This document shows positions 3,041-64,000 of a stretch of 64,000 bases of DNA, piece by piece (the stretch's first letter is position 1; every line of letters begins with the position of its first letter). This DNA is from Cyanophora paradoxa CCMP329. Taxonomy: Eukaryota; Plantae; Glaucophyta. The notes under the pieces were generated by a model, which did not search any database, had not been told where the DNA came from, and saw only the letters and a program-made list of their open reading frames with translations. Location of the stretch: the NCBI GenBank assembly GCA_004431415.1, contig QPMI01000531.1:119844-183843 (forward strand), read 5' to 3'. The position numbers were made by a program, and so were the translations under genes.

Positions 3041-3209
3041 GATGCTGTGGATGCTGCTGTAGCGGCTCGTGAATGCTGCTGCGGCTGCTGGTAATGCTAG
3101 TGACTTCTTGTGGAAGCCGAGGAGGAACTTTCTGCCGCGCCCGAAGCGCGTGCGAAATGATGCCGAAATCTCGAGCTCCGACGTCGACGAAGGCACCACG
3201 TAAGACTGC

Positions 3210-3245
<36 letters not shown>

Positions 3246-3574
3246 TTCGGTAACCCTCCCGGCCGGCGTCGAACCCGTGCCTTGGCGTTTGCTCGTGGTG
3301 GAGCGGCGCGTTTCTCCAGTGATCGGCAGGAGCGGCGCAGCGCGTCGGGAAGCAACGGGGGACCTGAGCCGACGAGTCGCGTCGAACGCACCATCGATCT
3401 GACCGGACCGCCTGTGCGGCAGCAGCAGGTGCGCCTGCGGCAGGTTTCGCGGTTCGATAGGCCGCGCTATTCGATAGAGTTCGGTTACGGCGCCGCGCCC
3501 AGTCGTCCCGCGCCGGCTGACGCGATGCCGGTGCGCGAAGGTTGTGCAAGGGCCGGTCCCCATCGCTGGTTGCA

Positions 3575-11571: not shown

Positions 11572-11727
11572 ATTGAAGGCTCTTGCTGCAGAATTCAACT
11601 CCTGCTCATCTCTGCTCAGCTTACTTTGTCCAGCAACAGGGATAGAAAGCTTGAGTGGGGGGCTTTAAAAAGAAGAAGAAGAAATGTAGTCTGACATACC
11701 CTTGACTCTGGTGATGCAGGTGCTCGT

Positions 11728-23520: not shown

Positions 23521-23636
23521 ATAAGACGCAGCTCCGTAGCGGGCGCACTTTCGTGCCCCTCTTTTCGAGCCTCGGCTCGAGCTCGCAGTCAGTTCCAGTT
23601 TCCGATTCAGATATCGATTTAGTTTTTTCTGCAGTC

Positions 23637-43338: not shown

Positions 43339-43521
43339 TTGCGAGGCGTTGATTTCAATCCCTGAGTAATCGATGTAAACTCTATGTAAACTCAATCATC
43401 TATCTACGTATACGTATACGCCGTCCCGCCCCGGCCCCGCCGGAGCCGCCGCGCCGCCCGCCGAAGCCGACGTCGACGCGACGCCGGCGCCGGCGCGCGG
43501 TGCTGTCCGAACAAGTCGCAG

Positions 43522-44819: not shown

Positions 44820-46154
44820 ACCCTCCCGCCCCTCCCGGCCCCGGCCCCCCTCGCCCTCGACCTCTCGAGCCAGGAGTAGCGCTTGCACGAAGTTGCACCG
44901 AGCACAGATCTAGACCATGTGAAGGAAGTTCGGAATTCTTAGATCTTTTCTTTTACTCACTACGGGGGGCGAACCCCACACGTAGGTAGTATCATTAGCG
45001 AAAGAAAGTACAAAAGTAACGCAGAGTGAGTTTACAGAAAGTTTTATTTAAGGCCGACTACGTCAAAGAGGCAGAGGCACAGGTGGAAGGGGGGGTCCGT
45101 TCTGGCGGACGGAACGGAGAGCAGAATCAGTTTTCTGCCTCTGTTCCGACGCGCAGAACGAAAACTTCGGACAGTCCGAAATCGATTAGGGCAGATCACA
45201 GCTAAGTGCCCGAATCTTCTGTTCCGGGGCATCCGAGATCTAGGTTCTGACGTGCCAGGACGGAAGAGCGTCCGAAGAGTGCGGTTCGCTCCGCCAGAAC
45301 TGCCCGCCGGAACCGCGCGCTAGGACCCGGGGAGTTCGGGCAGATGAGGGATGCAGGGCTGCAGGGCCATAGCTAAGCGATCTGCGCTCGGCACACGACG
45401 CCAAACGTTCCGGAACCACTCATTGTACTTGTGAGCACATACTGGACGTACATAGGCTGAAGCTGCGAGCCCCTAGCACCGCGCTCGACCTAGAACCGAC
45501 AGGCCGCGACCTGCCGGCTGGGTGCGGCGGTCTTCTGCGCTCCAAACGTTAGCTATGAGCGATCCGCGATGGTTCCGCGTGCACTGGCCTGCGTTCTTGC
45601 GCCACGAGCAAGGGTGATCCCGCGCCGCTCGCAGGCGTCGCCCGGGGGCACAAGCTGGCTCCAAATGATGATGCTGGAGGTTTGCGCGCTGTCTATGCTA
45701 AGGTGCGACGCGAGACGATGTGCTCTCGTGCATGCTGCAGGATGGTTGGCGAGCACACGTACGGGGGCGGAATCTTCCCCCCCTCTTCCCCCTGAACTGG
45801 CCAAGAAGTCGGACCGGACACCGATGCTCAGCCCCAGCAGCAAGCTAGCAAGTCGTTCGCCTCAGGCCGGGCGGCGGCGAGGCCGAGGCTGGCGGGCGCG
45901 TCACCCGCGGCCGCCTCGCATCGTGTCGCGGTAGACGCCTCGTCGCTGCCGGGAACGCGTGCGCCCCGCCGAGAGCTCCCCGCCGCGCCGGCGTCGTCCA
46001 CGTGCACCTCGTCCACCTCGTCGACCGCGAGGCGAGCGCGTGTGCTTCCCTTCACCCGCCGCGCCCCGCCCACAGCTTACGCGCCCTTTTCAGATCGCCG
46101 ATAAGGCGGAAGAACCTCCTCCCCCGCCCTCCGTCCTCCGCCCTCGGCCTTCGG

Positions 46155-47400
46155 GGCCCGGCGGGGGCGCGGCGGGCGGCGGCGCTTCTCGTCGGGCGGG
46201 GCGGAGGCGCGGCGGGCGGCGGCGTTGCTCACTGGACGGGGCCCGGCGGGTGCGCGGCGGGCGGCGGCGCGGCTGATTGGACGGGGCCCGACGGGGGCGC
46301 GGCGGGCGGCGGCGCGGCTCGTCGGGCGGGGCGGAGGCGCGGCGGGCGGCGGCGCGGCTCGCCGGACGGGGCCCGGCGGGGGCGCGGCGGGCGGCGGCGC
46401 GGCTCGCCGGACGGGGCCCGGCGGGGGCGCGGTGGGCGGCGGCGCGGCTCGCCGGACGGGGCCCGACGGGGGCGCGGCGGGCGGCGGCGCGGCTCGCCGG
46501 ACGGGGCCCGGCGGGGGCGCGGCGGGCGGCGGCGCGGCTCGCCGGACGGGGCCCGGCGGGGGCGCGGCGGGCGGCGGCGCGGCTCGCCGGACGGGGCCCG
46601 GCAGGGGCGCGGCGGGCGGCGGCGCGGCTCGCCGGACGGGCCCGGCGGGGGCGCGGCGGGCGGCGGCGCGGCTCGCCGGACGGGGCCCGGCGGGGCGCGG
46701 CGGGCGGCGGCGCGGCTCGTCGGGCGGGGCCCGGCAGGGGCGCGGCGAGCGACGGCGCGGCTCGCCGGACGGGGCCCGGCGGGGGCGCGGCGGGCGGCGG
46801 CGCGGCTCGTCGGGCGGGGCCCGGCGGGGGCGCGGCGAGCGACGGCGCGGCTCGCCGGACGGGGCCGGCGGCGGCGCGGCGGGCGGCGGCGCGGCTCGTC
46901 GGGCGGGGCCCGGCAGGGGCGCGGCGAGCGACGGCGCGGCTCGCCGGACGGGGCCCGGCGGGGGCGCGGCGGGCGGCGGCGTGGCTCGTCGGCCCGCGGG
47001 CGGGGCGGAGGCGCGGCGGGCAGCAGCGCGGCTCGTCGGGCGGGGCCCGGCAGGGGCGCGGCGGGCGGCGGCGCGGCTCGTCGGGCGGGGCCCGGCAGGG
47101 GCGCGGCGGGCGGCGGCGCGGCTCGTCGGGCGGGGCGGAGGCGCGGCGGGCGGCGGCGCGGCTCGCCGGACGGGGCCCGGCGGGTGCGCGGCGGGTGCGC
47201 AGCGGGCGGCGGCGCGACCCGCCGCACGGGCCCGGCGGGGGCGCGGCGGGCGGCGGCGTGGCTCATTGGACGGGGCGGAGGCTCGGCGGGCAGCGGCGCG
47301 GCGCCGGCTCGCCGGACGGGGACCGGCGCGGCAGAGGCCGGCCCGGCGGGGGCGCGTCGGGCGGTGGCGCGGCTCGCCGGACAGGGGGGGAGCTCGGCGG
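46155..47400. repeat. 45-bp extremely GC-rich minisatellite
   Basis: Unit ggcgggcggcggcgcggctcgccggacggggcccggcgggggcgc with 45-bp period (46360, 46405, 46450...), degenerate at both ends. Confidence 0.92.
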
Positions 47401-49807
47401 GCTCGCCGGCTCCGGGCGGGGCGGGCTCGCCGGCGGGCAGCCATCGGCTCGCGGGGCGCCGGCGCGCGGGCAGCCGTCGGCTCGCGGGGCGCCGGCGCAG
47501 GGGCGGCAGGGGGCGGGTGGCAGGGGGGCGGGCGTTTGAGGGGCCCCACCCCTGCCGGCCCGGCCCGACCGGCGCCTGCTGCCTTGTATAGCATTTGAAG
47601 CACTCAAATAGCTTTCGTTTGTCGCTTTCCCGACCCCAGCAGAGCCTGTGCCGCGCGCCTGGGTGCCGCGCCTTCGCCGGGGCCCCTTGGTTCATGGTCA
47701 CGCCGATCGATCGCGACGACAGAGCGAGCCAGCAGAGCTTCATTTCGATATAATGAGTGAGATTATTAAAGAATTATATCTTAAGAGTGTGTGCACCGAT
47801 TTTCGCGGCAAGCGCGAACGTTCCGGACGATGCACGTTATCATGAGTCTTTAGACCAAAGTACTAGACCTGACTTCTCTAAGTTCATCATCAATTCTATT
47901 TCAACATCGATCAGCGCTGCTCATTGTCCGGAACGTTCGGCGAAGCTTGGTATTTGAATACAAATGAAGTATTTAGACCACGTACATCTTGATCCCAAAG
48001 CGGGAAGTCGCTGGGAGTACTGCGTCTTTGATCATGAGCCAGGCGGGGCATGCTCGAGCCGCAGGCCTCCCGCGCGCGCGCGCGGGCCCGGCCCACTACG
48101 CTTGAGTGAAAAACCGGTGCTAGTGCGGGTTTACCTTCCGTCTGAGGCCTGAGAAAGGCCCGCGGCCCGACCGCCGCGGCGGTACGCCGTGATAACCGGA
48201 GGGCACCTAGGCGTACTAGTACTTCGCCGCGTGCCGCGGGTGGAGCTCTGAGCGGGGCGCGTCCTGAGGGCGCACATACGTCCTAAAGAAGGAAAACATG
48301 CGACTGCACGCGGCTAGAGCCTCGGGGAAGCCCAGCAGCTAAAGTCGCCTCGGCCGGGCCGGCGCCGCGGCGCGCGCGGCAGCACGCTGCGGCAGTGCGG
48401 CAGCACGCTGCGGCAGCGCGGCAGCGCGAGACTAGTACAGTACTGGGGTGCTTTCCGCTGCGGACCGCTGGCCAGGGGTATGGGGACCCTGGGGGGTACA
48501 AGACTGAAGCAGCAAACTGCCACCTGCGAGCGAGCGAGCCAGCGCGCCGCGCGCTAATCAGCGGCTATCCGCGGCCTCTAGAGCGTAGAGACAACTCGTT
48601 GGCATGGCGGGCGCTCCGATCGGCGCTGTTTCCGCGAGGTCACCGACCTCCAGGTTCGCACGCCTCGGTGCCGCAAGACCTTCCGTCTAGAGTACGCATG
48701 AGAGCTCTCATTCACGTTCTGCGCACCAGTTCTGTTCTCCGGGGAAGCCAGCAGAAGATCCTACGCACTTGGCTCTTCCACACTAAGGCATGAAGCAGTG
48801 CGCCCAGAGTTGTTTTAACACGCTAGTTGCGCTTCTGCAACGTCAAAGCATCGATCTGGAGCTTCGCTGCGCCTGGATCGTTGTGCCGGCTGACTTGCGC
48901 TTGGCTGCTCGTCAGACTTCTCGAGAAGGCTTCTCGTCAGGTGAAGGCGGCCCGGAAGCAGCCGCGGCGCTCTTCATGCTTGCTATGAGCTTCTCGCTCC
49001 TCGGCGCTACGCCCCGCGCTTTGCCTCGACCTCTCGCAGCCGAGCGCTGGGCTACTGGCTGCCCAATTCAGTACTAACTCGTCTCTCGAAGCTGCGGCTC
49101 GTCGCCTCACGTTCACGATCTACTTCACCGGTGCGCACTCCTCGCTCAAGCCCGCCCTCTCATGCTGCCACCGCTGCTCTCCCCGCCTTAGCTGACTTGC
49201 GGCGTGCGCAGGATGTCCGGATCGCGGAGCCTGCACGGCGAAAGCGTCCGAGAAGCGACGGCGGCCCTTTGCCCGCTTGGTGCGCGCCTCGCCGCCCTTC
49301 AGCGCCGCGCGCCGCGCGACGGGGGGAGCGCAGGAGCCCCGAATCCCGGCGCCTGCGCGGCGGAGGCGGCCGTGAGGCTGCGGCGGCCCTCCCTTCGCTT
49401 GGTGCGCGCCTCGCAGCCCTTCAGCGCCCTCCCCCTCCCCTCTAAAGCTAGACGCCAAGTGACGCCCGCTAGAGCTAGATGGCGGGGCTGCAGCCCCGGC
49501 GACGGCCCTCAGGTGCCGCCGCTGGTGCCTTGTCCCGCTGTCTTCTAGCCGCCCTATATATGTGGGCCTTTGTGAAGCGTTGAGCTCTCGAGCTTGCCCC
49601 TTCGCTGTCAATGCATTGTTAACCCTCGGAGGTTGCATGAGTCACGCGTCGCGGAGGTTTGGGTGTTATATTGCGATCAGGTACACGCTGCACTAACAGG
49701 GGGGCTAGCACTAACCGACGCGGGGAGTAACAGCCGGTGTACCCCTCGGGGGGCCTCCCGGCCTCTAACGATGCTCAGGCTCTAACTGAATGCTGTACCC
49801 CCCGCTG

Positions 49808-50546
49808 TTACTGCCCGAACCTTCCGAACTTGCGTAATTCGGCCTCGCCCTGTACCCAGTGGCTGGTGTCGTCCATCCATTCGCGTACCTCCCTCTGACG
49901 CTTGAGTGACTCACGCTGCTCGGGGGTAGGGGAGGGGGGCCTTCGAGGCGGGGTGGGGAAGGGGGTACGGTGGCAAAATTCAGCCACTCGGGGGTATGCC
50001 GAATTCGCCGTGAACGATCCTCTGCGGTGTGAAATACCGGTCGCTGCTCACGGCCAAGTGGAAGAACGCGCTCCTGAGCCCGGAGAGGAAGCGTGGTTGC
50101 ATGAATGGCTGCTGGAGGGACTCGTCGCGCCAGGGGGCTACGAAATCAATGATACGCTGCTGTACCTGCGCGGGCAGGGCAAGGATCTGGCTCTTGCGGT
50201 TCGCAAAGGCCGTCCACAGCGCTTGCAGGTCGGCCCAATCGCCGTTCAGATCCCTGCGTTCGCGCCTCAGGTACGATCTCGGGTTCTCTGTCATACCCAT
50301 CAAGCCCGCGGCCCTGATCATCTCCCTGTCCGGGAGCTCTCGCTCGTCGTGGAATTCGTCTCTAATCCAGCGCACAAGGTAGAGCACGCGCTCCATGAAG
50401 TTCTCCGCCGGCGAGCCGCCCCCTGAGGACGTGCGCCTCCCCTCCAGCACTGCGTTCGCATCCTCCAAGTCCACGTTCCGCTGTCGAATCTCCCCGTCCA
50501 GGTCGCCGTTGTTGTACAGCACGTCGGACTCGCGTGTTCGCGCCAT
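49808..50546 (-). CDS. Hypothetical protein, paralog of 50613-51274 (frameshifted near the 3' end)
   Basis: ORF 49980-50546 continues in another frame to ...REVREWMDDTSHWVQG..GQ*. Confidence 0.6.
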
Positions 50547-50612
50547 GCTCGCGGCTCGGTGAGAATTTATACCTGTACCCCTACTCGCGGTCGGGGTACC
50601 TGTCGCCGGGCA

Positions 50613-51274
50613 TCAGCCTCGCGCGCTTCCGCATCTCCGCCTCCCGGGTAGCCAGTTCTTCGGGTCGTTGCTCCACTCCTCCCATTCGCGTATGTCCCGT
50701 CTGACGTCACGCGGGGCGGGGGCGTTTATCGGTGGGCGGGCGGGGCTGGCAGGGCCTGGCGCGGGGGTTGAGGCCCTGTTCCACGAGTACTCGGGGTACT
50801 CTTCCCATCCCAGGGGTACCAGATTCATCGGAATTGGCTCAACTTCGAATTGGGGCTTTTTGACGTGATAATCATAGTTTGTGACATACGCCGTCACAGC
50901 CGAGCGCAAGCGCGAGAGGTCGCGCAAATTTACGTCGTCCCATTGCGAGTCCCTTGCCTTCGCGTACCACTCGAGGATTTGCATGCGAATGTGGTCCGGG
51001 AGGGTCGAGAGTATGCTGAGCTTGGAGCCCAGGGCGAACCAGATGCGCTTGAACTCGTCGATAATCCTGCCCTCGTCGTGGCTCCGAACGTAAAGGGCCC
51101 GCCAGAGTTGTAATGCGTGTCTAGCCACCCTGCCCGGGCCAGCTCTAGCACCGGCCAGGGTTGGCGCTGTCGATTCGGTCGCGAGGCCTGCTCTACCACC
51201 CAGCGTCTAAGGTCCTTGACCTGATCTATGAACTGTGCGATCACGTCCCTGGGCGCTTCCTCTGCATCCGACAT
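50613..51274 (-). CDS. Hypothetical protein, paralog of 49808-50546 (frameshifted)
   Basis: MSDAEEAPRDVIAQF.. joined to ORF 50613-51128. Confidence 0.6.
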
Positions 51275-51324
51275 TTGCAATTGCACACATCAAGAAATTC
51301 TAAACGCTACTGCGAGGCTACGCT

Positions 51325-52014
51325 ATGCATACCGATACAAATTGCGAGACTTTGCAACAGGGGAGCGCAGCGTGGCACGCGGCGCGCCGTGAAAAACTAA
51401 CTGCATCTAATTTTGCGGCTGCGTGCGGCATAAACCCCTGGAAATCCAGGGCCCGCCTGTGGGCGGAGCTAAGCGGGATAGCGGAGGAAAACAACTTTGA
51501 CAACCCTGCCCTAACCTATGGGCATGACTATGAGCCCCTCGCGGTCTCTATCTACAAGGCACTGAACGATAACGTTGACATTAAACATACTGGACTGCAC
51601 GAACATAAAGAAATGCCGTTCCTCGCCGGTAGCCCCGACGGACTTATAGGAAATGATAGAATTTTAGAGGTGAAATGCCCGTACAAGGGCGAACTTTATG
51701 ATAGAGTTCCTACTTATTACATGCCGCAGTTACAAGGACTTCTGGACATAACGGGCCGCGAGTGGGCCGAACTTTTTTGCTTCACTCCTCTGCGCGTGCA
51801 AACGTGGTACGTCAGGCGCGACGAGAGGTACATCGAGCTCATGAGGAAGTGCTTACATCTATTTTGGATGCACGTCAAGGAGGGCACGCCGCCCGAGCCC
51901 TACAGCGATCGAATGAAGTTAGAGAACCTCAGCGAGGAGCAGGCGGCGCTGCGCGAGTTTAAGTCGTACGCCCTCCTCTCAGAGTCTAGGCAGACTACTT
52001 CTGTCCCAGGCTAG
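51325..52014 (+). CDS. YqaJ/lambda-exonuclease-like viral recombinase nuclease
   Basis: QGSAAWHAARR..LTASNF, YGHDYEPLA, FLAGSPDG, LEVKCP, YYMPQLQGLL; intact and intronless. Confidence 0.95.
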   Translation: MHTDTNCETLQQGSAAWHAARREKLTASNFAAACGINPWKSRARLWAELSGIAEENNFDNPALTYGHDYEPLAVSIYKALNDNVDIKHTGLHEHKEMPFLAGSPDGLIGNDRILEVKCPYKGELYDRVPTYYMPQLQGLLDITGREWAELFCFTPLRVQTWYVRRDERYIELMRKCLHLFWMHVKEGTPPEPYSDRMKLENLSEEQAALREFKSYALLSESRQTTSVPG

Positions 52015-52523
52015 GTCTTTGGAATCTTAATATAAATTTTCCGGGGACCCGGGACAGGCCTTGTCGGACATGGCAATGTCAGAACCTTCCCGATCATCTA
52101 GATCTATAATGATTCTAGGGAGGGTCCAGACACATCTCTTGTGCGGACCACTTCTGTCCCAGGTCTTTGGAATCTTAATATAAATTTTCCAGGGACCCGG
52201 GACAGGCCTCGTCGAACAAACCTCTTCATGGGCCAAGATTTCGTGCATGCATCGGCCGCAGCTCATGCGAAAAATCATGTCTGATCCGATCCTGATCATG
52301 ACGTCCTGCAAATTGAAGAATCGTCTGACCGGGAGTGTCCCGGGTCCCTGGAAATTTTATATTAAGATTCCAGAGACCCGGGACAGATCTACCTAGAGGG
52401 AACATCCAAAATGCTGTACCCCTCCCACCCCGTGATCTTTCGAATTCAATCTGATGGGCCGACCTGAGTGACGGTGTCCTGGGTCCCGGAAAGTTTATAT
52501 TAAGATTCCAAGGACCTGGGACA
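52002..52523. repeat. Four copies of a 50-bp palindrome with AT-rich spacer (two forward, two reverse)
   Basis: TGTCCCAGGTCTTTGGAA-TCTTAATATAAATT-TTCCAGGGACCCGGGACA at 52002, 52155, 52336 (rc), 52475 (rc). Confidence 0.93.
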
Positions 52524-52589
52524 AGAGCAATGCATTTTCGCACGACGTTGACATAGCCTGATCACGAGAGAAAAATGTACCCCGATCTA

Positions 52590-55500
52590 TCAAATCCGCC
52601 GATGGAGCAGCGAGTAGCAGTCGCAGAACAGATCTTTCACCTCCAAGTAATCCGGCCCCACGCCAGCCCAGCGCTGCCTTGCTTGGCGCTCTGCAACATC
52701 TTCGAGAGTGTCTTCCTTGACCCACGTGATGCACTTGCGCTTGCGAGAGCCGGCGCCCTCCTGCCCTTCTCGGGTCCGTTTTTCCCCGGACCGGGCCCGT
52801 CTCACCCCCATGTACTTTTCGAGCAGGTACTGAATCACCCGCCACGACTGCTGCGCAAGCTTGGCCTTCTCATTGTCCGATGCATCGAGTTTAGGGGCCC
52901 GCTCGTCCAGACTCTGCAGCACCGCGTAAGCCTCCCGGCCCTCCGGTGATGCGAGCGCCGCGTAGGCTTCGTCCGACCAAAGCATACAGCTGTCGCCGGC
53001 CAGCTTCTCGTACCCCGGCCCAAAAAGTCGCTTGAAAAGCTCCGCAACCTTCGAGACCCTGTGGTACTCAGTAGACGAGGCGATCTCGGCCATGTCGCCG
53101 CCGCGCTTCAGCACAAGGATGATCCGCGACATCAGCGGGATCGAGTAGAATGACTTCCACAGCCAGGCCACGTCGCTCTCGGTCAGCGCGCTTGCGTCCT
53201 TGGCCAGGAACGCAGCGGTCGCTAGGCGCGCGAGTGCAGCAACCTTCTCCACGTCGACCTTAGCAAGCGAATCGCGCGAATGCCACCAGGAGTCCAGCAG
53301 CATGTACAGTTCGGTGATGTCCAGGGGCGGAGACTCGAGTACGTACTTGATCTCGCGCTGCCGCTGCTCCTTCTCCTCTTTCGGCCCTTGTTTCCCTGAT
53401 CCTCCGTGACCCGCACGTTCATCACGGCGCAGGTCGACAGCAGCCGCAGCCGCGCGGCCACGGCGAGGCGCCGCGTCGGCATGCCGGCCCGCCGACTCCC
53501 GTGATGGCTCGCCTTCAAGTCCAGATAGCGCTGCGTGTCTGCAGTGCTAGCTCTCTCATCATCGCTCTCACGCCAGTGCGCGGTCGCCTCGCCCACGCTG
53601 ACGGAGGGCGCGGACGCGCGGCTCTTGCGCACGGCGACGAGCAGGTGCTCTCCGCCGGGCGGCTCGCCGCGCCTGCGCAGCTTTCTCACTCGGAACAGCA
53701 GCTGCACGATGTCGTCGGCCTCTAGCTGCGCGGGTTCGGCCTGGAAAACGCCGTAGATCTTGTCAAAGTGCGCTTCCGGAAAGTCCACGCCGCCCCGAGC
53801 GCGGACGTCGCGATGAGCACGTCGCAGGCCTTGTACGCGCCCTCCTCCGAGACGTCGATCGACACTACGCGGACCGGGCCCTCGTTCGTGAAGCGCACGC
53901 TCTTCTCCTTCGCCTGCCCAACGATGAGCCCAATTGTGAACGGTGCGCCGCTGCCGTCCTCGGGCCCTGCCTCGAGCTGAGTCACGTACTGAGCGCCGCC
54001 AGGCTGAGCTGCTCCAGCGCCTGCTTCGAAATCTTGTCTGCTAGCTCATTCGCCTTGGCCGGCGTCTCCGCGATGATCATGGCCCGCGAGCGCCCAGGTC
54101 GGCACTGCACCATGATGTCCTTCTCGACGTGCGCCGGGCTGTCTGACACGCGCATCTTCCAGTCGCAGGTCCGGCGCGAGTTGTGCAGGAGCCCAAGGCG
54201 CGCCCCGCGCTCCAGCGCGGACTCCGCGAGGTACGCGAGATCGACCGGCCGGACGAAGCCGTCCATCGCCACGATGCGCGAGGCCTTCATCACGTTTCGC
54301 ATTAGCTGCACGCAGCGCGCGTTTCGGGGCATTGACCGCACGCCCATGTGCAGGCCGGCGGGTTCGAGGGTGCCGCTCGAAGTGAGGTGCTTCGTGAGGG
54401 AGGAGAGCTCGTCCAGCACGATCATCAGCGGCGCAGTCGACCAGCCCGCCCAGTCCTCAAGTACCTTGTGCAGCGAGTCGATCGTGATGACGACGCACCT
54501 GCACTTCGGATGGCGGTAGCCCCACTTGCCGTGCGTCCCATTTGAGCTCTCCGGCGGCTTCTGAATGTCCATGTACAGCACGGCGTCCTCAGGCAGGCCC
54601 ACGTCATCCAGGCGGCGCTTCAGGTCGCGGGAGAAGGCGCGGCGGCAGGTCAAGAGGATCACGCGCCAGCCCCCCTCGAGGGCTGGCTTCAGGTACGTCT
54701 CGATGAGGGCCTGCGTCTTCCCCGTGTTGAGGCCCGAGCAGATGACGTCGACCTGGGCGGCCCCCGGCTCCAGCGGACCGAACGTGGAGGTGAGCAGCCC
54801 TGGATCGCGCGTCAGGTAGTCCGTATCCACGACCTTCACGCAGTGCGGTGTCAGGCCCGTCGATTCGAGTGCGATCAGGAGCGACGGGAGGGCCACGTCG
54901 AGCGCCACGGGCTGGGACGGGTCCGTCACGTAAGACGCCGCCGTCTCGCTGCAGCTCCCGTCTCCAGCTCCCCCTCCTGCTCCACCTCGACACCGTGCGC
55001 CCGAATCGCGATTCTGAGGGCCGGCGATCCTGGCTGATCGCTCATCTTCAGGGTGATTGTTCCGTCGGGCTCGACTGCAATGTCTTGAACGCGGCGGGGG
55101 TCATTCAGGCTGATCTCAGTGCGCAACGCCGCCCCCGCCCGCCAGATCTCGTCCTCACCAGCTTGTTCTCGCGCAGGAGGCTCAGGAACCGATCGAAGTC
55201 CGGGAGCGGAGCCTGGGCGTCGCCCGTCAAGCTCAGCGGGGGTGGGGCGGCTCCTTGCGGGGAGGAGCTCCTGGCGCCGCAGTCCCGAGCAAGCCCCCGA
55301 GCTGCGGCGCCCTGCGGCCCCTGCGCCACCCCCTGCGCCGATCCCTGCGTCGGCCCTGCAGGACGTAGGCTCCTGTGTCGTCCCCCCCGAGCTCCAGGCC
55401 GCTAGATGTCCCCAGCAGCCAGGTCGCAAAGGCGCAGGCCTCCGGGCTCTGCAGGACGTAGGCAGCCTTGAGCCCGTTGTGCGATGTTCGAGAGAAAGTG

Positions 55501-55754
55501 AGGCCTCCGAAGCTCTCCGCGCATGCACGGGCGGCCGCGGTGCTCGTCTCGTCTTCCGCGTCGGAGAAGTGCTTGGACATGATGTGCGGCGGGTGAAAGA
55601 TACAGAAGACCATTCCGAGATCAGCGCTGCAGACCTTCTGGACGCAGACGAGGGGGAAGCGAGTGAAGAAAAGCTCTTCTTGCGGGCTCAGGTCCACGGG
55701 AGTTACCCCCGGCAGACGGGAGAGTAGACTGTCGGAGCACGTCGAGGTGGCCAT
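52590..55754 (-). CDS. Replication origin-binding protein-like SF2 helicase (UL9/OBP family), ~1050 aa across several frameshifts
   Basis: ICSGLNTGKT, LLTCRRAFS, TIDSLHK, IVLDELSS, AMDG, VLIATSALGAG(V)DFPEAHFD, QLLFRVR. Confidence 0.88.
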
Positions 55755-55933
55755 GCTCTCGGGTTAGGCCTGCTGTTTCGTGTTAGGCTTGGAAAATTTT
55801 CAGTGGCACCGGCCGGAAACTGCACACCTTGAGAACTCGAACTCGAACTCCAAGGCTCGGTGAATTGGCGCTAGCTGCACTGTCGACGTCGACTGTCGGA
55901 CCGTCGACGTCGGACTTCGGATGTCTCGTCTTC

Positions 55934-55983
55934 TGTCCCAGGTCTTTGGAATCTTAATATAAATTTTCCAGGGACCCGGGACA
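55934..55983. repeat. Fifth copy of the 50-bp palindrome, upstream of the helicase
   Basis: Identical to 52155-52204. Confidence 0.93.
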
Positions 55984-56368
55984 CTCTGGTCTGACGACGC
56001 TGCAGCTCGAAGCGCTCAACTGGGTCCGGTTGACGGCACACAGGCTATCAGGGTGCCAGGCCTAGCCTAGTACGTAGGCTGACCGTCGGACCAGTACTGG
56101 CGGTTCAGTTGAAGCCGAGTACTACTAGCGCTAGCTATAGCGCCAGCGCTAGCTGTAGGCTAGTACTAGTACTAGATCGAGAGACGGTACGGCGCGCCAC
56201 AGCTAGCGAGCTCGCGCTCGCTCGCCTTTGCGCTGAAGCTTAGAAAATTTTGGGCTCACGCGGTCGTTCCACGTGTTCTGTCCGGACAACCTGTACCCCA
56301 GCTGTCCAGCCAAGTAGTCAGAGCTCTCCAATCCTGCGGCGCTTGGGCCCGTGCTTCTCAGAGCACTT

Positions 56369-57978
56369 GATGGAGGCCAGCGTGTGCGTTCTGTGCTCTC
56401 GGGAGCCGCCGCTTCGTTCCCGCCGATGCAGAAGTGCGTCTCGGTCGGCGACCCCTCTCTCCGCGGAGCGGCTAGCTGGAGAGCTCTCCCGATGCCGCGC
56501 GCTTACACTGCGGTGCGCAGGCTCGGTTGCTGTGGCCGGCAACCTTCGAGAGCTCGATGGCACCCAAGCTGAACCACCTCGCCGCATCGCGGAGGTGCTG
56601 GCTCCCTCTTTCGCAGCTCTTTCGCTTACACTTACACTTTCGCTAGACCGTGCCGCACAGCCTCGCGCTCATTTCCCCACGTTCGCAGAACTTCGGCGTC
56701 GGCGCAGGTTCCGGGATCTGCGACCGCGCCTCCCGCAGCTCGAGCCGGCGTCTGCGGCGACCCGCGCATGCATCTAGATCCTATTCTGAAACCCGTGCGT
56801 CGATCCGGGGTCCCGGGCTCGCGTTCCTGCGCCTCCCGGACCCTCACACTGCTCCTGTTTGCATCCTAGCTAAGACCTTCCTCGCCCGCAGCCGGTCTCG
56901 TCCTCGGCACATTGTGAGCGGCATCAGTGGAGCTGGAGTTCCGCACTTTATGCAGGCCCGTGCGCCCTTTCCCGCCCCGCCCCGCCCAGCCCCGCCCCGC
57001 CTCGCGTGCGCTATAGCTAGCTAACCCTGTCGCGCGCGCCGCAGAGGGTTCGTAGCCGGAGGGCTCGCAGGCCGCGGCCCGGACACCTCCGCCGCCGTCG
57101 GCGCCGACATCGAGAACGGCCGGCTGGACGAGACCCTCGCCGGCTTCGGCTCCTGGTGCCGCCCCTACTCCTACAAGCTCGGCGGCGTCTGGCAGACCTA
57201 CATCCGCGGCATCGTCCCAAGGCCCCGCTCTCCCTCGGCGAGAGCCAGCCGGCGCTGGAGGCGATCGCGATCCCCGTCGCCCAGTTCAAGGACCCGGCGC
57301 CCGACGTCGGGCCCTTCCTCGTCAAGCCCCACACCAAGGGCAAGGGCAAGCGCACCCGCAACTCGGCGCCGGCCTTCCTCCCGCCCCAGCCCCCCGCCAC
57401 GGCCCCCAGCAGCGCCCCGGCCAGCAGCGCATCGACGAGATGCTGCCGCGCCAGGTCCGGCCCCGCGTACCCCCCGCCTTCCCTGTACCTCCCTCCCCCT
57501 CGCCCCGTTCCTGATCCAAGGGCAGGGTACCTCGGCCTCCCCCGCGAGCGCCGACGGCCCCAGCCCCGTCCCCGGCCCCGGCCACGTCCTCTCCGCGATC
57601 CAGGGCTTCGGGGCCCAGCAGGAGGCCGAGCGGCAGGCGCTGGCGGCGCGCCAGGCGCGCGAGGCGGAGGAGCGGCGCCAGGCCCTCTGGGCCCAGCGCC
57701 TCCAGCGCACCCTCGCCTTCCGCGCCGAGCTGGAGGCGGGATTCCGCGCCCGCCAGATCTCCGGTGCGGAGGCCTCGGAGACTTGGCGGGCGTTCGAGGC
57801 GGAGACGGCGGGGCTGGCGAAGACCCTCGCCCAGCCCTACCGGCGCGTGGCCGTCCCGCAGTCCTACGCGCGGCGGGCGACGCTGGAGGCCTCGCGGGCG
57901 GAGATCGACGCGGCGGAGGAGCAGGCGGAGCGCGAGGAGGCCGAGGACAACGCGCGCTTCCGGCACCTCCACCACTGA
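56369..57978 (+). CDS. Intron-containing hypothetical gene with C-terminal coiled coil
   Basis: Host-style introns (e.g. ~56956-57044 and ~57455-57526); exons ..RPYSYKLGGVWQTYIRG.. and ..QQEAERQALAARQAREAEERRQ..RHLHH*; 5' structure uncertain. Confidence 0.5.
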
Positions 57979-58026
57979 GGCCTCGAGGCGGTATTTTTTC
58001 TCAACCCCTTCCAATTCGGTCTCGCG

Positions 58027-58218
58027 ATGGCCCTCGCTGACAGCTATCCCCCGCATTACTCGCTAGGAGCCCTCGCCGCGACCCTCACCTGGCTCCTCGG
58101 CGGCACGCCCACGGCCTCGGCCGTCATCGGCGTGGGCTTCGGCTACGCCGCCAAGACCCTCTACGCCCCCGGCTCCGTCTCGATGGCGACGGCCGGCATG
58201 CGCCCCGCGGGGCGTTAA
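58027..58218 (+). CDS. Small hydrophobic protein
   Basis: 63 aa ORF with two hydrophobic stretches. Confidence 0.55.
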   Translation: MALADSYPPHYSLGALAATLTWLLGGTPTASAVIGVGFGYAAKTLYAPGSVSMATAGMRPAGR

Positions 58219-58325
58219 CTCTCCCTTTTCAAAGTTCCATTCCCCCCTTTCCCTTTTCAAAGTTGCGACGTCCTTTTGAGTCCGTTGGCATTTAAATTTT
58301 CTTCATCGTCTGTACACGTCTAAAC

Positions 58326-58822
58326 ATGCCCAACGCCGTAGAGAAGCTGTTGTGTACGGTGTTCAAATCGGACTCGCGCTGCAGCAAGATCGGCGAGGCT
58401 GCCAAGGGCGGGGGCGGGGCGAAGGCCGGCGGCGGGGCGGAGGGCCTAAGATAAGGGGCGCGGACCCGGCGCCGCCGGCGCTAAAGTCGATTAAGGCTGC
58501 GGGCAAGGGCCGCGGCGTCGGGCCCCTGCCCCTCGTGGCGATCGCCCCGGGCCAGCGCGAGGCGGCGCACGCGGCGACGGCGGCGCTGGCCTCGCAGCAG
58601 CAGAGGGAGGGGGCGCCGCGCCTGAGCGCCGGCCTCTGGTCGCAGCCTGCGCCCGCGCGCGAGTACGGCGTCAGCGCTTACTTCGACGGCGCGAACGAGC
58701 TGAGCCGCCAGGAGATCTGGGCCTGGGAGGCGCGGCGCGCGGTCGACGGGCACCTGCCGTTGCTCGTGGCGCTCGGCGGCTCGCTCCTCATGGTCTGGTA
58801 CCTGCGCGGCTTCGCGATTTAG
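58326..58822 (+). CDS. Small protein with C-terminal TM anchor (frameshifted)
   Basis: MPNAVEKLLC.. joined to the frame ending LPLLVALGGSLLMVWYLRGFAI. Confidence 0.6.
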
Positions 58823-58851
58823 ATAGATTTTCGAAGCGCTAGCTAGTAGAG

Positions 58852-59178
58852 ATGAGCTGGCTCGACGCGCTGCTCACCAAGACCTTTGGGCCCAAGGGCG
58901 CGCCGCGGCTGCAGTTCGGTGAGCTCAACGCCGCGATCGGCGCCACAGTCGAGATGAAGAACCGCGAGAACGTGCTGCGCGGCGACGGAGGCGCGTGGGC
59001 GGACATTGCGGCGGGCGCGCTGGGCTCCGCACTCACCGCACCGGGCAAGGCGGGCCGCGCGCTCACGGACGTGGCCGAGCGCTTCTGGCACTGGCTCAAG
59101 GTTGCCGTGGTCATCGCCGCAGCGGTTGTGGCGGGTCTCCTGGTGCTCGAGGCTCGCGCGCTATTTTCTAAACGCTAG
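58852..59178 (+). CDS. Small protein with C-terminal TM anchor
   Basis: 108 aa; WLKVAVVIAAAVVAGLLVL. Confidence 0.7.
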   Translation: MSWLDALLTKTFGPKGAPRLQFGELNAAIGATVEMKNRENVLRGDGGAWADIAAGALGSALTAPGKAGRALTDVAERFWHWLKVAVVIAAAVVAGLLVLEARALFSKR

Positions 59179-59193
59179 GTAAAGCGAGCGAAC

Positions 59194-59598
59194 CATGCCC
59201 CGCGGCGGCTCTTCCCCCGTGTCTCCTTCGCTGAGAACGAAGTCGCCGCTACCCCCCTGGAGCCCGGCGTCAAGCTGGAGCGCGCGAACGCAGTCTCCGT
59301 CAAGAAGGCCAAGCGCGCGCTGGTTCTAGAAGTCCCCAAGACCGCCTCGCAGTTCCTTCCCACGTCCGAGTACGACGGCACGGAAGATACGGAGAAGGTT
59401 GCATTCAACAAGCGCAAGACGTACAAGGCGATACGCGAGGGCCAGCTGCTGCCCACGGACGCGGTTCCCGGGCTGCCGGGCACCACGGCCGGCGAGCTGC
59501 TCGTGCGCAACCTGCGCCTGCAGTACGTCTCCCGCCTCCGCCGCTCCAAGGCCAAGAAGGCGCGCCTGGACTCGGGCGATAGCAGCTCTAGCTCGTAG
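59194..59598 (+). CDS. Small basic hypothetical protein (frameshift near start)
   Basis: Open frame ..KLERANAVSVKKAKR..RLRRSKAKKARLDSGDSSSSS*. Confidence 0.55.
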   Translation, partial: HAPRRLFPRVSFAENEVAATPLEPGVKLERANAVSVKKAKRALVLEVPKTASQFLPTSEYDGTEDTEKVAFNKRKTYKAIREGQLLPTDAVPGLPGTTAGELLVRNLRLQYVSRLRRSKAKKARLDSGDSSSSS

Positions 59599-59614
59599 GG
59601 CTCTGTACTCAATA

Positions 59615-59899
59615 CTACCAGTTCCTGTTCCTATCCCAGAGCACGACTCGGGTAAAGGGCACGGTCATAGCGAACATGAACTCGGCAAACTTGGAGAAGT
59701 TCATGAGGGTCCCTAGGCGCGGGTCCTCCCAGTAGATAGCTTCGCGCAGGGACTCGTAGATGCGCATGAGGGAGCGCTCGTTCTCGGTCGCGAAGGCGTC
59801 GGAGGGCTCGTCGGGATCCGGATCCGAGAGCTCCGAGTACTCGTCCGAGCTGCCAGCGCTCTCGACGCCTGCGGCCGGGTCGGGCGAGGGGTCAGCCAT
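59615..59899 (-). CDS. Small acidic hypothetical protein
   Basis: 94 aa ATG ORF tightly packed with neighbours. Confidence 0.65.
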   Translation of the reverse strand: MADPSPDPAAGVESAGSSDEYSELSDPDPDEPSDAFATENERSLMRIYESLREAIYWEDPRLGTLMNFSKFAEFMFAMTVPFTRVVLWDRNRNW

Positions 59900-59925
59900 T
59901 CTTTGCTGGTAGAAGGGCTAGAAAA

Positions 59926-60266
59926 TCACGGGCGCCGGTACTCCATCGAGTCGCCGCGCCAGTACTTGTTGCCGGAGGCGAGCAGCTTCATCGGCTCGCC
60001 CGTCGAGTCGTGCGTCCAGGCCTCGCCCGTCCAGACGGCCGTGCCGCCGTCCTCTAGCTTGAGGCGGTGGCCCGCCTCGAGCCGATCGCCGTTGAGCATG
60101 CGGCCGGCCATGAGCGCCAGGTCCCACTCGGTGAGGCCGCGCTGCTCTTCGGGGTGAGGCCGCGCTCGACGCGCTCGGGCTGGCGCGCCTCGCGCTCCAT
60201 GCGGCTGAGGCCCACCAGGAAGAAGATCGGCAGCGCAAAGGCCATGAGATCTAGCAGGGCCTCCAT
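59926..60266 (-). CDS. Small protein with N-terminal TM segment (frameshifted)
   Basis: MEALLDLMAFALPIFFLVGL.. joined to ..GTAVWTGEAWTHDSTG.. Confidence 0.6.
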
Positions 60267-60276
60267 TGGGCAAGAC

Positions 60277-60570
60277 TTAGAAAAGGTTCCGGGCCAGGCC
60301 CGAGAGCTGCGGGCCCAGGCGCCGGGCGGCGTAGTAGAGCGCGGCGGCCGCGGCGGCCAGGATCAGAAGGCGCGGCGGGCCGCGCGCGGGCTCCTCCAGG
60401 GTCAAGTCCACGGTCTCTGGCTCGCGGGCCGGCGTCGCCAGGATCTCGGGCTCGGAGCTAAGGGACTTGGGCCCGCGGCGGCGGCGCTGCTTGGGGGCGG
60501 AGGCGGCGGCGGCGGCGGAGAGAAGGTCCTCGGGCTCCTGCTTGATACCTGCGCAGTCAGTAAAGTCCAT
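60277..60570 (-). CDS. Small protein with C-terminal hydrophobic segment
   Basis: 97 aa; LLILAAAAAALYYAA. Confidence 0.6.
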   Translation of the reverse strand: MDFTDCAGIKQEPEDLLSAAAAASAPKQRRRRGPKSLSSEPEILATPAREPETVDLTLEEPARGPPRLLILAAAAAALYYAARRLGPQLSGLARNLF

Positions 60571-60634
60571 GCTTGCTGGGTACCTCGGAAAATTGTGGGA
60601 GGTGCCCGGCGGCTGCGAACGTAGGATGGGGGGA

Positions 60635-62070
60635 GAAGTGACGCGGACGCGAATACGTCATAGTCGAATACGTCATAGTCCAAAACCTGGACTCGGGACT
60701 CGGCCCGGGCCCTGGGGAGGGGGGTACATGTTATGTCCAAATGTCCAAATGTCCAAATGTCCAAATGTCCAATTGAAAGGTTGCGGAGGTTGCGGACGCG
60801 TCACAAATACGTCATAGTCGAATACGTCATAGTCCAAAACCTGGACTTGGGACCTGGGCCCAGACTCTCGCCAAGTTTCAAATAATAATACTGTACCCCT
60901 GTTATCTGCAAGCTTATCTTATCGTTATCGTGTCACCTATCCTATCCCGATCCTATCGCTATCCTTTCGCGATCGCTTGACTACACTATTGCATTCATTG
61001 CTTTTGAATGTAGTTAATGTCATAGCAACTTGAACATGATGTCATGATGATTTCAAGTTAAATACCGGGGTACGGTGTTTTTGTTCAAGTCTCTTTTTTT
61101 TACCGGCAGGGCCCGGGCCGAGTCCCGAGTCCAGGTTTTGGACTATGACGTATTCGACTATGACGTATTTGTGACGCGTCCGCAACCTCCGCAACCTTTC
61201 AGTTAATTAATTAAGCACTGGGCTAGCGCTAGGCTAGCTAGATATCGATACCAGCTAGCTAGCTCAGCTCTACCCTGCCCAAGTTGATGGTATCTAGCAG
61301 CGCCTGCTCCTCTAAGTCTGCACCGCCTCCTCCTAGCGCTAGCGCTAGCTCGATACCGCCTCCAGACTTGATCTCCTTGGCTTCAGCCACCGAAGGGGCT
61401 CAGGCCACCTCCTCCTGGTGAAGCCGGTATCGTTGCGCTTGTCCAGCTTGAGGTAGCGGTAGGGCGCCGGCGCCGGCCAGTCGGGCCTGTGGCTGCTGGC
61501 CTCCTTGGCTATGTCCTTGGGCCTACGCGGAAGCAGGTCGGCCTTGGCCTTGGCCTTCTGCAGAGGGCCCAGCGCCTTGAACTTCGGTGCCTTCGTCGCC
61601 GGCAGGGCCTTCGGCTGAGGCTTCGGTGCCTTCTGCGCCTTCGTCTTCGGCTGCGGCTGCGGCTTTAGCTGCTTCGATTTCGGCATACTTCTTGCTCATA
61701 AATGAGAAAAGCGCCTCGAAGTCGGCTTTTATCTCCTCCTTGGTCCAGGATGTCATCTGAGTCGGGTCACCTGAGAACGGCGCATCGAACGCCACGTGGA
61801 GCGATTTGCAGGCCTGAGCTATCATTGGCTCCGGCCAGGCCAGCTCGATCAGCTGAAGGTAGATACTGAGGGCCTTGTCGAGCTTGGCGCCCTGGGAGAC
61901 TAGCTGGGAGATGGCGGGCTCCATGGTACTGGATTAAGCAGCTAGCCGGGGTTCAGAAAATGGCGCCAAGTCCGAGCTTATTTTTTTACCGGCGGGGCCT
62001 GGCGAGTCCCGAGTCCAGGTTTTGGACTATGACGTATTCGACTATGACGTATTCGCGTCCGCGTCACTTC
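60635..62070. promoter_or_regulatory. Control region: four ~80-bp motif copies in inverted arrangement, (ATGTCCAA)5 and an AT-rich core
   Basis: Copies at 60635-60714 and 60774-60853 versus reverse complements at 61107-61201 and 61981-62070; 8-mer array at 60733-60772. Confidence 0.8.
61523..61924 (-). CDS. Hypothetical protein
   Basis: 133 aa ATG ORF; an overlapping Lys/Pro-rich frame (61345-61686) may be the true C-terminus. Confidence 0.55.
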   Translation of the reverse strand: MEPAISQLVSQGAKLDKALSIYLQLIELAWPEPMIAQACKSLHVAFDAPFSGDPTQMTSWTKEEIKADFEALFSFMSKKYAEIEAAKAAAAAEDEGAEGTEASAEGPAGDEGTEVQGAGPSAEGQGQGRPASA

Positions 62071-62174
62071 CCCCCCTCTTCAGGTGAGCGCTCACCTGAC
62101 CCTCACCTGAACGGCCTCAAAACCGCAGCCGCGCCGCGCCCTCGCTCACACTTCACAGCCAAGAAGAATCAAGA

Positions 62175-62422
62175 ATGTGCGCCCCAAGTACGAGACCTGC
62201 TGCCTGACCTTCGGCATCTTCGAGTACGAGGCCATGGACGAGGATCTCGACGAGAACGGCGAGATCTGCTTCAACTACTGCAGGCTGCTGCGCAACATCT
62301 CGCTGGAGTGCCGCAAAGGGCGACTGCTTCCAGCACATCATGCTCAATCCGCAAGAACGAGATCACCCTGTACGCCGTCGCCAGCCCCAGCGCCAGATTT
62401 AGACTCTCGAATATTCGCGTAG
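62175..62422 (+). CDS. Small Cys/acidic hypothetical protein (frameshifted)
   Basis: ..KYETCCLTFGIFEYEAMDEDLDENGEICFNYC..; end uncertain. Confidence 0.45.
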
Positions 62423-62577
62423 CCGTGATTGAGGCTCTCCCCCTCCCAGTGAGACGAATTGAACACGTGTTTTACCTGAATCACCTGAGCGCTCACCCGA
62501 GGTCAGCCTGAAGTCAGGTGGGGCGGCCTTAAATATTTTCTAGCGCTAGGCTGATCGCACACTAAGCTCAGACAACA

Positions 62578-63351
62578 ATGGCCACCGTCCGCAACGCCAC
62601 CGAGATCGACCCCGCCAAGCTCGCCTTCGAAATCGATGCCAACGCCGCATCAAGGCCAAGTACGACGGCCTGCAGGGCCTCATGATGTACGCGCCGCCCA
62701 TGGTCACGATCAACCCGTGCATCACACCGAGCAAGGCAAGGCGTGGAGCGACGAGAAGAAGGCCTTCGTCATGGAAGAAAACGGCGGATTTTACACGCTG
62801 GACCTCACCGATCTCAGCGCCGTCGACGGCCAGACGAACCAGCCGCGGACGAGTTCCTCAAGCTGCTGGAGGCCCTGGACGCGAAATTCTGCGAGTTCGT
62901 GCAGCAGAACCAGGCCAAGCTCAAGGTCTCGCCCGGGCGCGCCCTCTCCAAGGATCAGATCTCGGTGCTGCGACGCCCAGCGTGCGCATCAAGGTCGACA
63001 AGGAGTCGGGCCAGGCCTTCTACAAGTACCTCAACATGCGCATCCGCACGCAGACGATGGCGGGCAAGCGCAAGACGATCCCAGTCGTCGACATGTCCAA
63101 CTACCTCATCACGAGCGCGCCACATCGGCACCGGAGACCTGGTGGCGGCCCTCGTTAAAATCGACACCGCCTACGCCATCCCGAGGGCAAGTTCGGCCTC
63201 AAGTGGTCCTTCCTCGCCGTGCAGCAGTGCAAGGTCGGCGCCTTTCGCTTCGCCGGCCGCACGCCCGAGCTGCCTTCAAGCCCTACGACAACGAGGCCGA
63301 TTTCGAGCCCTACCTAAACCCCGAGTCTATGTACACCACCCCATGCAGTAG
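62578..63351 (+). CDS. Single-stranded DNA-binding protein, T7 gp2.5/NCLDV-like OB fold (frameshifted)
   Basis: EFLKLLEALDAKF, GDLVAALVKIDTAY..GKFGLKWSFLAVQ, acidic/aromatic tail; AATAAA at 63361. Confidence 0.7.
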
Positions 63352-63400
63352 TTTAGAACGAATAAATTGTAAATTCTCTGGTGCAATTGATTACAAGCGT

Positions 63401-64000
63401 TTACATCAGAGGCCGTTGAACTTGCCGCCACCGCCCTGGCTCCGCCGCCGTCGAGGCCGCCGCCTCCGTCACCTCCTTCATCATCTCCGGTTCGCGTTGG
63501 CCGCGTGCACCGCCAGCACCGTCTGCACCAGGGCCATCCCCAGGCGCGCTCGGCCCAGGGTCACCGTAGCGCGAGTACTTAATCACCAGCTCCTCTAAGA
63601 TCGGCTGCACCTGGTCCATGGAAGAGAGCGTCGCCTGCCCGAGCCCGTCTAACTTCAGGCGATCGGATCGTACGCTTTGTTAAGGTGCTCCAGCGAGTGC
63701 ATGCCGCGATCAGAAAGAGGCGCGCCGCCTCCAGCGAACCCCGCGTGCTCAGCTCGCGCTGAATTTCCTCGTACTCTTCCTTCAGCTCGTCCAGCGGCGT
63801 GGCGAGGCTCAGCTTCTTCGTGGACGTCAGCTCGCCCCCGAACGAGCGCCTGTACTGCGCGATCTGCCGCAGAACCTGCTTCTTCTCGTCCACGTCCACC
63901 TCGCCTCGTCGCGCGGCCTCTCCTGCAGGTCGATCCCACGCCTTTTTCACGCTCTGCTCCTTCTTCTTCGTCATTTCGATGTGCTCCTGCACGCTGAAGC
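63401..64000 (-). CDS. DUF5767-like conserved viral protein (5' part outside window, frameshifted)
   Basis: LDELKEEYEEI, LEHLNKAYDPI.LKLDGL, ILEELVIKY, RLGMALVQT resemble the NCLDV/PLV DUF5767 pattern. Confidence 0.7.

Follow-up and report, generated by a model that had tools for sequence, protein, structure and literature searches.

A likely mriyavirus-like provirus, present in many copies, in Cyanophora paradoxa, a glaucophyte

It has been proposed that, of all living viruses, mriyaviruses stand nearest to the ancestor of the giant viruses, and the only hosts named in the paper defining the class Mriyaviricetes are amoebae and haptophytes. The gene table of this class lists a PDDEXK nuclease, Mriya_48, a T7-like single-stranded DNA-binding protein (SSB, gene ssb) and a UL9-related superfamily 2 (SF2) helicase (10.1101/2024.02.29.582850; PMC11253617). 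The subject of this text is an element in a 64,000-nucleotide stretch of the genome of Cyanophora paradoxa CCMP329 (hereafter the window, meaning the whole stretch analysed), where its compact open reading frames (ORFs) extend from about 49,550 through the window end. The element likely represents a small mriyavirus-like virus, replicating in the nucleus, that became a provirus and stands outside both named families, Gamadviridae and Yaraviridae; it has many copies, and its left end is visible.

For mriyaviruses in general, nuclear replication by the host polymerase has been proposed (10.1101/2024.02.29.582850). In Gamadviridae (Pleurochrysis endemic viruses, NDDVs and Phaglo-G) the tabulated gene order is PDDEXK, PEV_27, ssb, ATPase, VLTF3, mCP, Mriya_51, Mriya_50, PEV_20, Mriya_48 (PMC11253617), and one integrated NDDV, Phaglo-G of the haptophyte Phaeocystis, carries YqaJ, VLTF3 and RuvC (10.1101/2022.07.28.501842). 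The UL9-related SF2 helicase is described from a subset of Yaraviridae (10.1101/2024.02.29.582850); the table gives SF2_hel for 8 of 60 mriyavirus genomes, and ssb for none of those 8 (PMC11253617). As for C. paradoxa, it has been reported that its genome holds giant-virus insertions (GEVEs) with clustered Nucleocytoviricota-like genes, on whose gene content, size, copy number and family the text is silent (PMC12344493), and a polinton-like virus (PLV) of this alga is mentioned once in PMC12220804. The class, an integrated NDDV and unclassified giant-virus insertions in C. paradoxa are thus already known. The landmarks needed for the comparison are as follows.

49530..49562, no strand: left junction of host and element, set by the step in contig depth and the divergence of contigs
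51325..52014, plus strand: YqaJ, a PDDEXK exonuclease of lambda type (PF09588, E 2e-28)
52590..55754, minus strand: SF2 helicase of UL9/OBP-CyRepA type, about 1,050 codons, with at least five frame breaks in the assembly
59615..59899, minus strand: acidic ORF of 94 amino acids, weakly like gamadvirus PEV_34 (E 0.008 against 1,516 window segments)
62578..63350, plus strand: SSB of T7 gp2.5 type, homologue of gamadvirus PEV_26, with 7 frame breaks here
63406..64000, minus strand: DUF5767, equated with Mriya_48, its 5' end past the window and several frame breaks here

The flank to the left of about 49,530 is single-copy and carries a spliced host gene, and on this host side five GT-AG introns (48649-49472) are spliced out in RNA-like contigs, a presumed label for the read sets X15, X17, X18 and X19, no RNA record being among the listed holders. 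To the right stand the dense ORFs of the element. An earlier note on this DNA had described such a switch from intron-rich host genes to compact ORFs, which is borne out, but its start at 49,808 has to be moved about 250 bases to the left. Left of the junction the depth is 127-155 in X1 and 187-232 in X2, both 2024 runs, against 2705-3522 and 5113-6312 to the right, and in the 2012 run X6 it is 34-46 in the flank against 862 in the element. The ratio of element to flank is thus about 19-28 and similar in the three runs, with the caution, to be counted against the reading given here, that such short-read depth sums are a rough guide and no strict copy number. One single-copy contig stops at 49561, and RNA-like contigs from other loci part from the window before 49550, 49553 and 49562. 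Other genomic copies, for which the earlier note had advised a search, do exist: 35 named contigs of C. paradoxa bear element proteins, and those of 25 contigs cluster with proteins of the window at 90% identity. Many copies have one left end in common; gene neighbours also stay together, as the consecutive gene numbers g153/154, g11935/11936, g778/779 and g1179/1180 indicate. Since the depth excess is similar in three runs and near-identical proteins lie on other contigs, the element is a multicopy nuclear element of C. paradoxa and no contaminant. In favour of a free or episomal virus of the culture, misassembled onto host DNA, it can be said that no short-read contig has at least 31 bases on each side of the junction (record 3 of X1 runs about 30 bases into the repeat); with element genes on 35 contigs, like depth ratios in 2012 and 2024, divergence of other loci at the same left end, and the same organism behind all 14 of the 14 best DNA-like runs, which hold 65-68% of the words, such a virus is very improbable.

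The frame breaks at 62643, 63437 and 63659 coincide with full-depth indels in short-read contigs. It is therefore probable that many of the frameshifts stem from errors in the consensus or are confined to this copy, and that most copies are intact at these sites.

The viral affiliation is drawn from profile comparisons. The best YqaJ-bearing IMG/VR contigs carry a Nucleocytoviricota major capsid protein (MCP), A32 ATPase, VLTF3, RuvC and DUF5767; a search with their MCP profile brings up Pleurochrysis endemic viruses, 48-49% identical, and the gene order of one of them, L245, is that of a 'Gamadviridae' representative in the mriyavirus table (PMC11253617). Mapping by this order equates DUF5767 with Mriya_48, SSB with PEV_26 and the acidic family with PEV_34, so the last name is one assigned from gene order. 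When 34 gamadvirus profiles, built from 60 loci, were run on the window, there were three strong matches in the element, namely PDDEXK (170 bits), ssb and Mriya_48, and the weak one to PEV_34 listed above. SSB and DUF5767, which lie in 8 and 7 frame pieces, were read through with X before scoring: SSB reached 65 bits on the profile from the viral (gamadvirus) contigs, where the best of 500 shuffles gave 0.8, and 76 bits (E 2e-22) on the larger one, and DUF5767 reached 68 bits, the best of 500 shuffles giving 7.9, and 92 bits on the larger profile. For one member of the SSB family Foldseek finds a fold like that of T7 gp2.5 (E 1e-6); the ssb profile found nothing below E 0.2 among PDB sequences, and DUF5767 compared directly with Pfam gave E 0.02 only, for one 32-residue piece, with no usable match in ESM Atlas. 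The YqaJ, T7-type SSB and DUF5767-like calls of the earlier note are therefore sound. Three strong matches and a weak one to families conserved in gamadvirus contigs support a mriyavirus-like provirus, as does the integrated relative Phaglo-G known from a haptophyte (10.1101/2022.07.28.501842), and the claim of an integrated small dsDNA virus related to Nucleocytoviricota gains from the copies, the junction and the profile matches together. Membership in Mriyaviricetes is what we infer from these genes, with any capsid, ATPase, VLTF3 and HUH endonuclease genes and the right end lying outside the window.

Several observations weigh against this reading. Only the left end of the element, which runs past the window end, is visible, and within these roughly 14.5 kb the profiles (among the 34) of MCP, ATPase, VLTF3, RuvC, Mriya_1, Mriya_50 and Mriya_51 have no window match; likewise, there is no Cyanophora protein in the best 120 of 442 MCP-profile matches. 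The gamadvirus comparison set was reached via YqaJ similarity and carries that bias. The genes depart from the order conserved in gamadviruses, the YqaJ tree places the window protein on a poorly supported fork with gamadviruses, larger nucleocytoplasmic large DNA viruses (NCLDVs) and plant proteins, and in pairwise comparison Mriya_48 scores 70 bits with a phycodnavirus-like set against 74 with gamadviruses. In addition, selection against host splice donors on the coding strands was considered and rejected, with 17 observed against 18.1 expected (P 0.43).

In its gene content the element resembles Gamadviridae in the PDDEXK/YqaJ nuclease, the PEV_26 ssb, Mriya_48 and, weakly, PEV_34; no DNA polymerase is seen in the visible part, the host is an alga, and an integrated member is known. 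It differs from them in its helicase, which is of the SF2 UL9 type whereas the tabulated gamadvirus helicases are SF3 (PMC11253617), and in its host, a glaucophyte whose nucleus carries about 20 copies or more. Among the features given for Mriyaviricetes, PDDEXK (YqaJ-like), Mriya_48 and one SF2 helicase C-terminal in a multidomain protein are found; among those of Gamadviridae, PEV_26 ssb is present, and SF3_hel2, the conserved order and nesting in the clade are absent. The class is further marked by a double jelly-roll MCP of Nucleocytoviricota type, HUH endonuclease and VLTF2, and a genome of 35-45 kb that lacks DNA and RNA polymerases. Compared by description only, the helicase of the SF2_hel subset of Yaraviridae is likewise UL9/R8/F1055L-related and C-terminal in a multidomain protein, alongside PDDEXK and Mriya_48; unlike the element, which has ssb, these viruses are tabulated with no PEV_26 ssb. 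Their helicase is described with an intact AEP primase; in that of the element no acidic catalytic motif is evident by eye. SF2 helicase and SSB are combined in the element, a combination tabulated for 0 of the 60 reference mriyaviruses (PMC11253617).

The earlier note had also called for YqaJ and DUF5767 trees; both were built, and both place the window genes outside Gamadviridae, the YqaJ fork with the poor support just mentioned. In the YqaJ tree (FastTree; 137 rows, 25 of the gamadvirus rows drawn at random, 45 of 212 other loci offered) the window protein shares its long branch with two proteins from the environment and lies outside the main clade of gamadviruses. It is 97% identical to a C. 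paradoxa cluster of 7 sequences with 13 accessions, and the two environmental proteins, P0004 and P0005, are 64% and 50% identical and form one clade with the Cyanophora YqaJ, on contigs shorter than 2 kb. Judged by these two sequences, the lineage has relatives elsewhere, either free or endogenous; IMG/VR, scanned directly with the window YqaJ and the helicase alignment, yielded no relative. In the Mriya_48 tree, which took 14 of 50 NCLDV sequences, the window copy falls outside the 14 gamadvirus rows with support 94/91. By its different gene order, its 30-40% identity and its branching outside the clade for YqaJ and Mriya_48, the element is, on sequence grounds, no gamadvirus. Four metagenome contigs (L161, L165, L167, L171) hold gamadvirus genes in rearranged order, with no ssb, ATPase or VLTF3 beside YqaJ, and L165 and L167 are among the best Mriya_48 matches.

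The element is a divergent, mosaic branch within the Mriyaviricetes space and no new category: what the earlier note took as possibly an undescribed lineage between PLVs and NCLDVs belongs to a space that already has a name. What is new here is the mix of SF2 helicase and ssb, the branching outside Gamadviridae, and several helicase types beside a near-constant YqaJ. Many near-intact copies in a cultured, sequenced alga point to a host in an early-branching Archaeplastida lineage. No description of this element was found in the literature, many journals being outside the search coverage. A survey from 2023, on DNA viruses integrated in the genomes of protists, may include it. The text of the 2026 PLV framework does not name Cyanophora, and its supplements may list the element (10.64898/2026.06.19.733378).

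That same framework describes PLV-sized, integrase-bearing relatives of mriyaviruses, the Zoravirus, VC134 and VC218 groups, with Mriya48 and RVE or tyrosine integrases, and states that mriyaviruses have no integration genes (10.64898/2026.06.19.733378). An element of this type, or a capsid-less derivative with replication genes and Mriya_48, would fit the sharp left end, the 20 or so or more copies and the absence of virion genes from the window. PDDEXK, T7-type ssb and PEV_34 are nevertheless mriyavirus/gamadvirus genes, which section 6 of the framework does not list for the Zora-type groups, the word 'YqaJ' being absent from that text (10.64898/2026.06.19.733378), and no integrase was found among the 30 element segments. 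On balance such an origin is unlikely. The Pfam scan of these segments put just two above the cut-off, YqaJ and the helicase piece, and gave no integrase and no polymerase; HUH endonuclease and VLTF2 did not turn up in it either, no dedicated profiles being used for them. PHROGs matched 1 of the 30 (YqaJ), Rfam gave 0 matches for 47,000-64,000, and pPolB, RVE, tyrosine recombinase and terminal inverted repeats were seen nowhere in the visible part. The remark of the earlier note that no capsid, ATPase, polymerase or integrase is visible agrees with the profile and Pfam scans of the element.

Somewhat less probable still is the view that a piece of a large giant-virus insertion, and no small virus, was amplified here. 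Large NCLDVs also carry YqaJ, T7-like SSB, DUF5767 and UL9-like helicases, GEVEs are reported for C. paradoxa (PMC12344493), and the pairwise Mriya_48 scores hardly separate the two sources. However, one left end is common to many copies; genes are densely packed in the 14.5 kb, and none of them is metabolic or codes for a repeat protein; the DUF5767 profiles favour gamadviruses with 92 against 49 bits, the NCLDV set being narrow; and the best YqaJ-bearing viral contigs are gamadviruses.

Returning to the mriyavirus-like provirus, its helicase gene, delimited by homologues, runs from 55754 to 52590 on the minus strand in at least six frame pieces, and short-read contigs across it show 2 and 6 gaps and no substitutions. 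PF02399 (Herpes_ori_bp) matches 53985-55100 on the minus strand (E 7e-9; 34.8 bits, the cut-off being 20), and a profile of Cyanophora helicases has the herpes simplex virus (HSV) origin-binding protein as its top PDB match (E 0.002), in keeping with the UL9/OBP-type call. The match is confined to the helicase motifs and does not cover the C-terminal origin-binding domain of UL9. The sole N-terminally complete copy scored with both profiles, P0236, gave 57.6 bits (E 1e-15) with CyRepA1 (NF042913) against 22.5 with Herpes_ori_bp, and the window piece gave 35 bits with CyRepA1. The helicase resembles the cyanobacterial CyRepA1 plasmid initiators in this best profile score, which is far under the family cut-off of 200 bits, and differs in its eukaryotic viral context. 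CyRepA proteins are described with replication activity and a DEXDc domain (10.1101/2023.10.09.561360); both best profiles belong to replication initiators. By tblastn there was one weak match, a CyRepA1 of a Nostoc plasmid, and none in phages; among 1.84 billion representatives there were four matches, all from this species and none from outside C. paradoxa. The structure model has a pLDDT of 39 (N-terminus below 55), three fold searches returned generic P-loop and SF2 matches only, and the N-terminal domain has no match in ESM Atlas or Pfam. One helicase type only shows, by eye, a possible SxH motif.

The C. paradoxa genome has at least four types of helicase, with identities of 42-68%, and three of them (window, g778/g779, g1179/g1180) adjoin YqaJ proteins of one 90% cluster, so the helicase varies and its neighbour is constant. 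The window type has a low depth, 337-397 in X1 over 52175-56962, and agrees with three gene models. Non-coding repeats lie around it and further right.

52002..52523, two copies per orientation: four copies of a 50-bp imperfect palindrome, a candidate origin or bidirectional promoter
55934..55983, no strand: fifth palindrome copy, upstream of the helicase
60629..62076, two copies per orientation: four copies of a second repeat family, 75-105 bp each

The palindrome has 18-bp arms, an AT-rich spacer and an invariant core, with four copies downstream and one upstream of the helicase. Three folded copies of the group at 52002..52523 have hairpin z values of -3.4 to -5.7; the arm motif is absent from the 49.5 kb of host DNA in the window, and a pattern search gave 0 matches. 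In HSV oriS, inverted UL9 boxes stand around an AT-rich spacer (PMC12543377), and this layout, together with the initiator-type helicase profiles, supports an origin model. The palindromes also contain TATA-like and ATTTTC-like motifs, an argument to the contrary, and they may be promoters. In the second family each copy has a 15-bp tandem, the inner pair surrounds a 245-bp stretch with 61% AT, and the whole is a candidate for a second origin; short pieces of it recur at the left end of the element, at about 49625-49665. As exact limits of a low-copy cassette the palindromes were considered, a notion weakened by the low depth running on to about 56,960. A low-copy, host-like non-coding stretch (55990-57045) lies within the element, up to an apparent host-type intron before the ORF at 57046, and may stem from host DNA that was captured and moves along with this type of helicase.

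By analogy with these gene families, the life cycle might run as follows. Host RNA polymerase II would transcribe the element genes from a short AT-rich motif; the helicase, as initiator, would bind the inverted arms of the palindromes and melt their spacer; SSB would hold the opened strand, and host polymerases would copy it. YqaJ would resect ends for recombination-dependent replication and probably also for integrase-free integration, a role proposed because no integrase is visible and mriyaviruses are described without one (10.64898/2026.06.19.733378). Mriya_48, annotated as an envelope protein (10.1101/2024.02.29.582850), would act with the small hydrophobic proteins in building the virion membrane, capsid and packaging genes are predicted to the right of the window, and the helicase with its palindromes would be exchanged as a cassette between copies. 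The likeness to herpesviral UL9/oriS/ICP8/UL12 lies in the best PDB match, the inverted arms with AT-rich spacer and the presence of SSB and exonuclease; unlike in herpesviruses, the SSB has a T7-type OB fold, not that of ICP8, and no polymerase is seen. The parallel with UL9/UL12/ICP8 may serve as a fair functional analogy. As a single module, however, the trio does not hold: YqaJ and helicase are convergent neighbours, SSB lies about 7 kb from the helicase and 10.5 kb from YqaJ, and SSB and Mriya_48 stand tail to tail. A fuller version, to be put forward only tentatively, would see a third family-level branch of Mriyaviricetes, the first with glaucophytes, with herpes-like replication, oriS-like palindromes, helicase-origin cassettes swapped among some 20 or more proviruses, and integration by YqaJ and SSB in place of an integrase. 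The C. paradoxa system opens induction, integrase-free integration and origin recognition to direct study, and with the pair of helicase and palindrome it can be asked whether origin binding of the UL9 kind exists beyond herpesviruses.

As for transcription, an ATTTTC-like motif, defined after these ORFs had been seen, lies 18-43 nt upstream of 13 of 14 ORF starts, against 22 of 279 other ATGs. In RNA-like contigs seven GT-AG introns on the strand opposite the helicase (53641-55177, plus strand) and one opposite YqaJ (51789-51857, minus strand) are spliced out, which indicates antisense transcription of the element, with splicing by the host. These introns have host-type donors, and part of this material stems from a diverged helicase type of higher abundance; antisense donors number 27 against 20.1 expected (P 0.036, two motifs having been tried and 1 of 23 segments being out of frame). 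The palindromes could be promoters of these transcripts, and the antisense spliced RNA possibly feeds silencing by RNA interference, C. paradoxa having been described with abundant exonic small RNAs (PMC3700990). A second protein from the spliced antisense RNA was rejected, the longest frame being 272 codons spliced against 305 unspliced.

The remaining features of the element are the following.

49980..50546, minus strand: ORF of 188 amino acids, no family, weak paralogue of the neighbouring ORF (pairwise E 2e-4), in a cluster of 2
50613..51274, minus strand: broken ORF, no family; full-depth short-read contigs have an extra base near 51097
57046..57978, plus strand: broken ORF, no family, with a Pro/Ala-rich middle and, by eye, an apparent host-type intron ahead of it
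58027..59598, plus strand: four small ORFs, with a predicted membrane helix in 58852-59178, in a cluster of 11 sequences
59926..60570, minus strand: small ORFs, one with a hydrophobic N-terminus by hydropathy
61523..61924, minus strand: ORF of 133 amino acids, no match in domain scans

A short segment common to the two ORFs in 49980-51274 (minus strand) resembles an F-box start, for which Pfam gave no match. As to the several small membrane proteins named in the earlier note, the 19-residue hydropathy mean exceeds 2 in two of eight segments, those at 58852 (plus) and 60266 (minus), two of the eight having been read in the wrong frame.

In the host part of the window there are protein kinase pieces (4098-5495 and 32738-33124) and a DNA_pol_A (DNA polymerase family A) fragment at 43990-44706, inside a spliced host gene piece at 43480-44820 on the plus strand. 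Consecutive pieces of reverse transcriptase, RNase H-like, Dam-like methyltransferase and tyrosine recombinase occupy 9994-12824 (plus strand), by this layout a DIRS-type retrotransposon. Moreover, a Ty3/gypsy-type LTR retrotransposon with Gag zinc knuckle, protease, reverse transcriptase, RNase H and integrase lies at 23505-30392 (plus strand).

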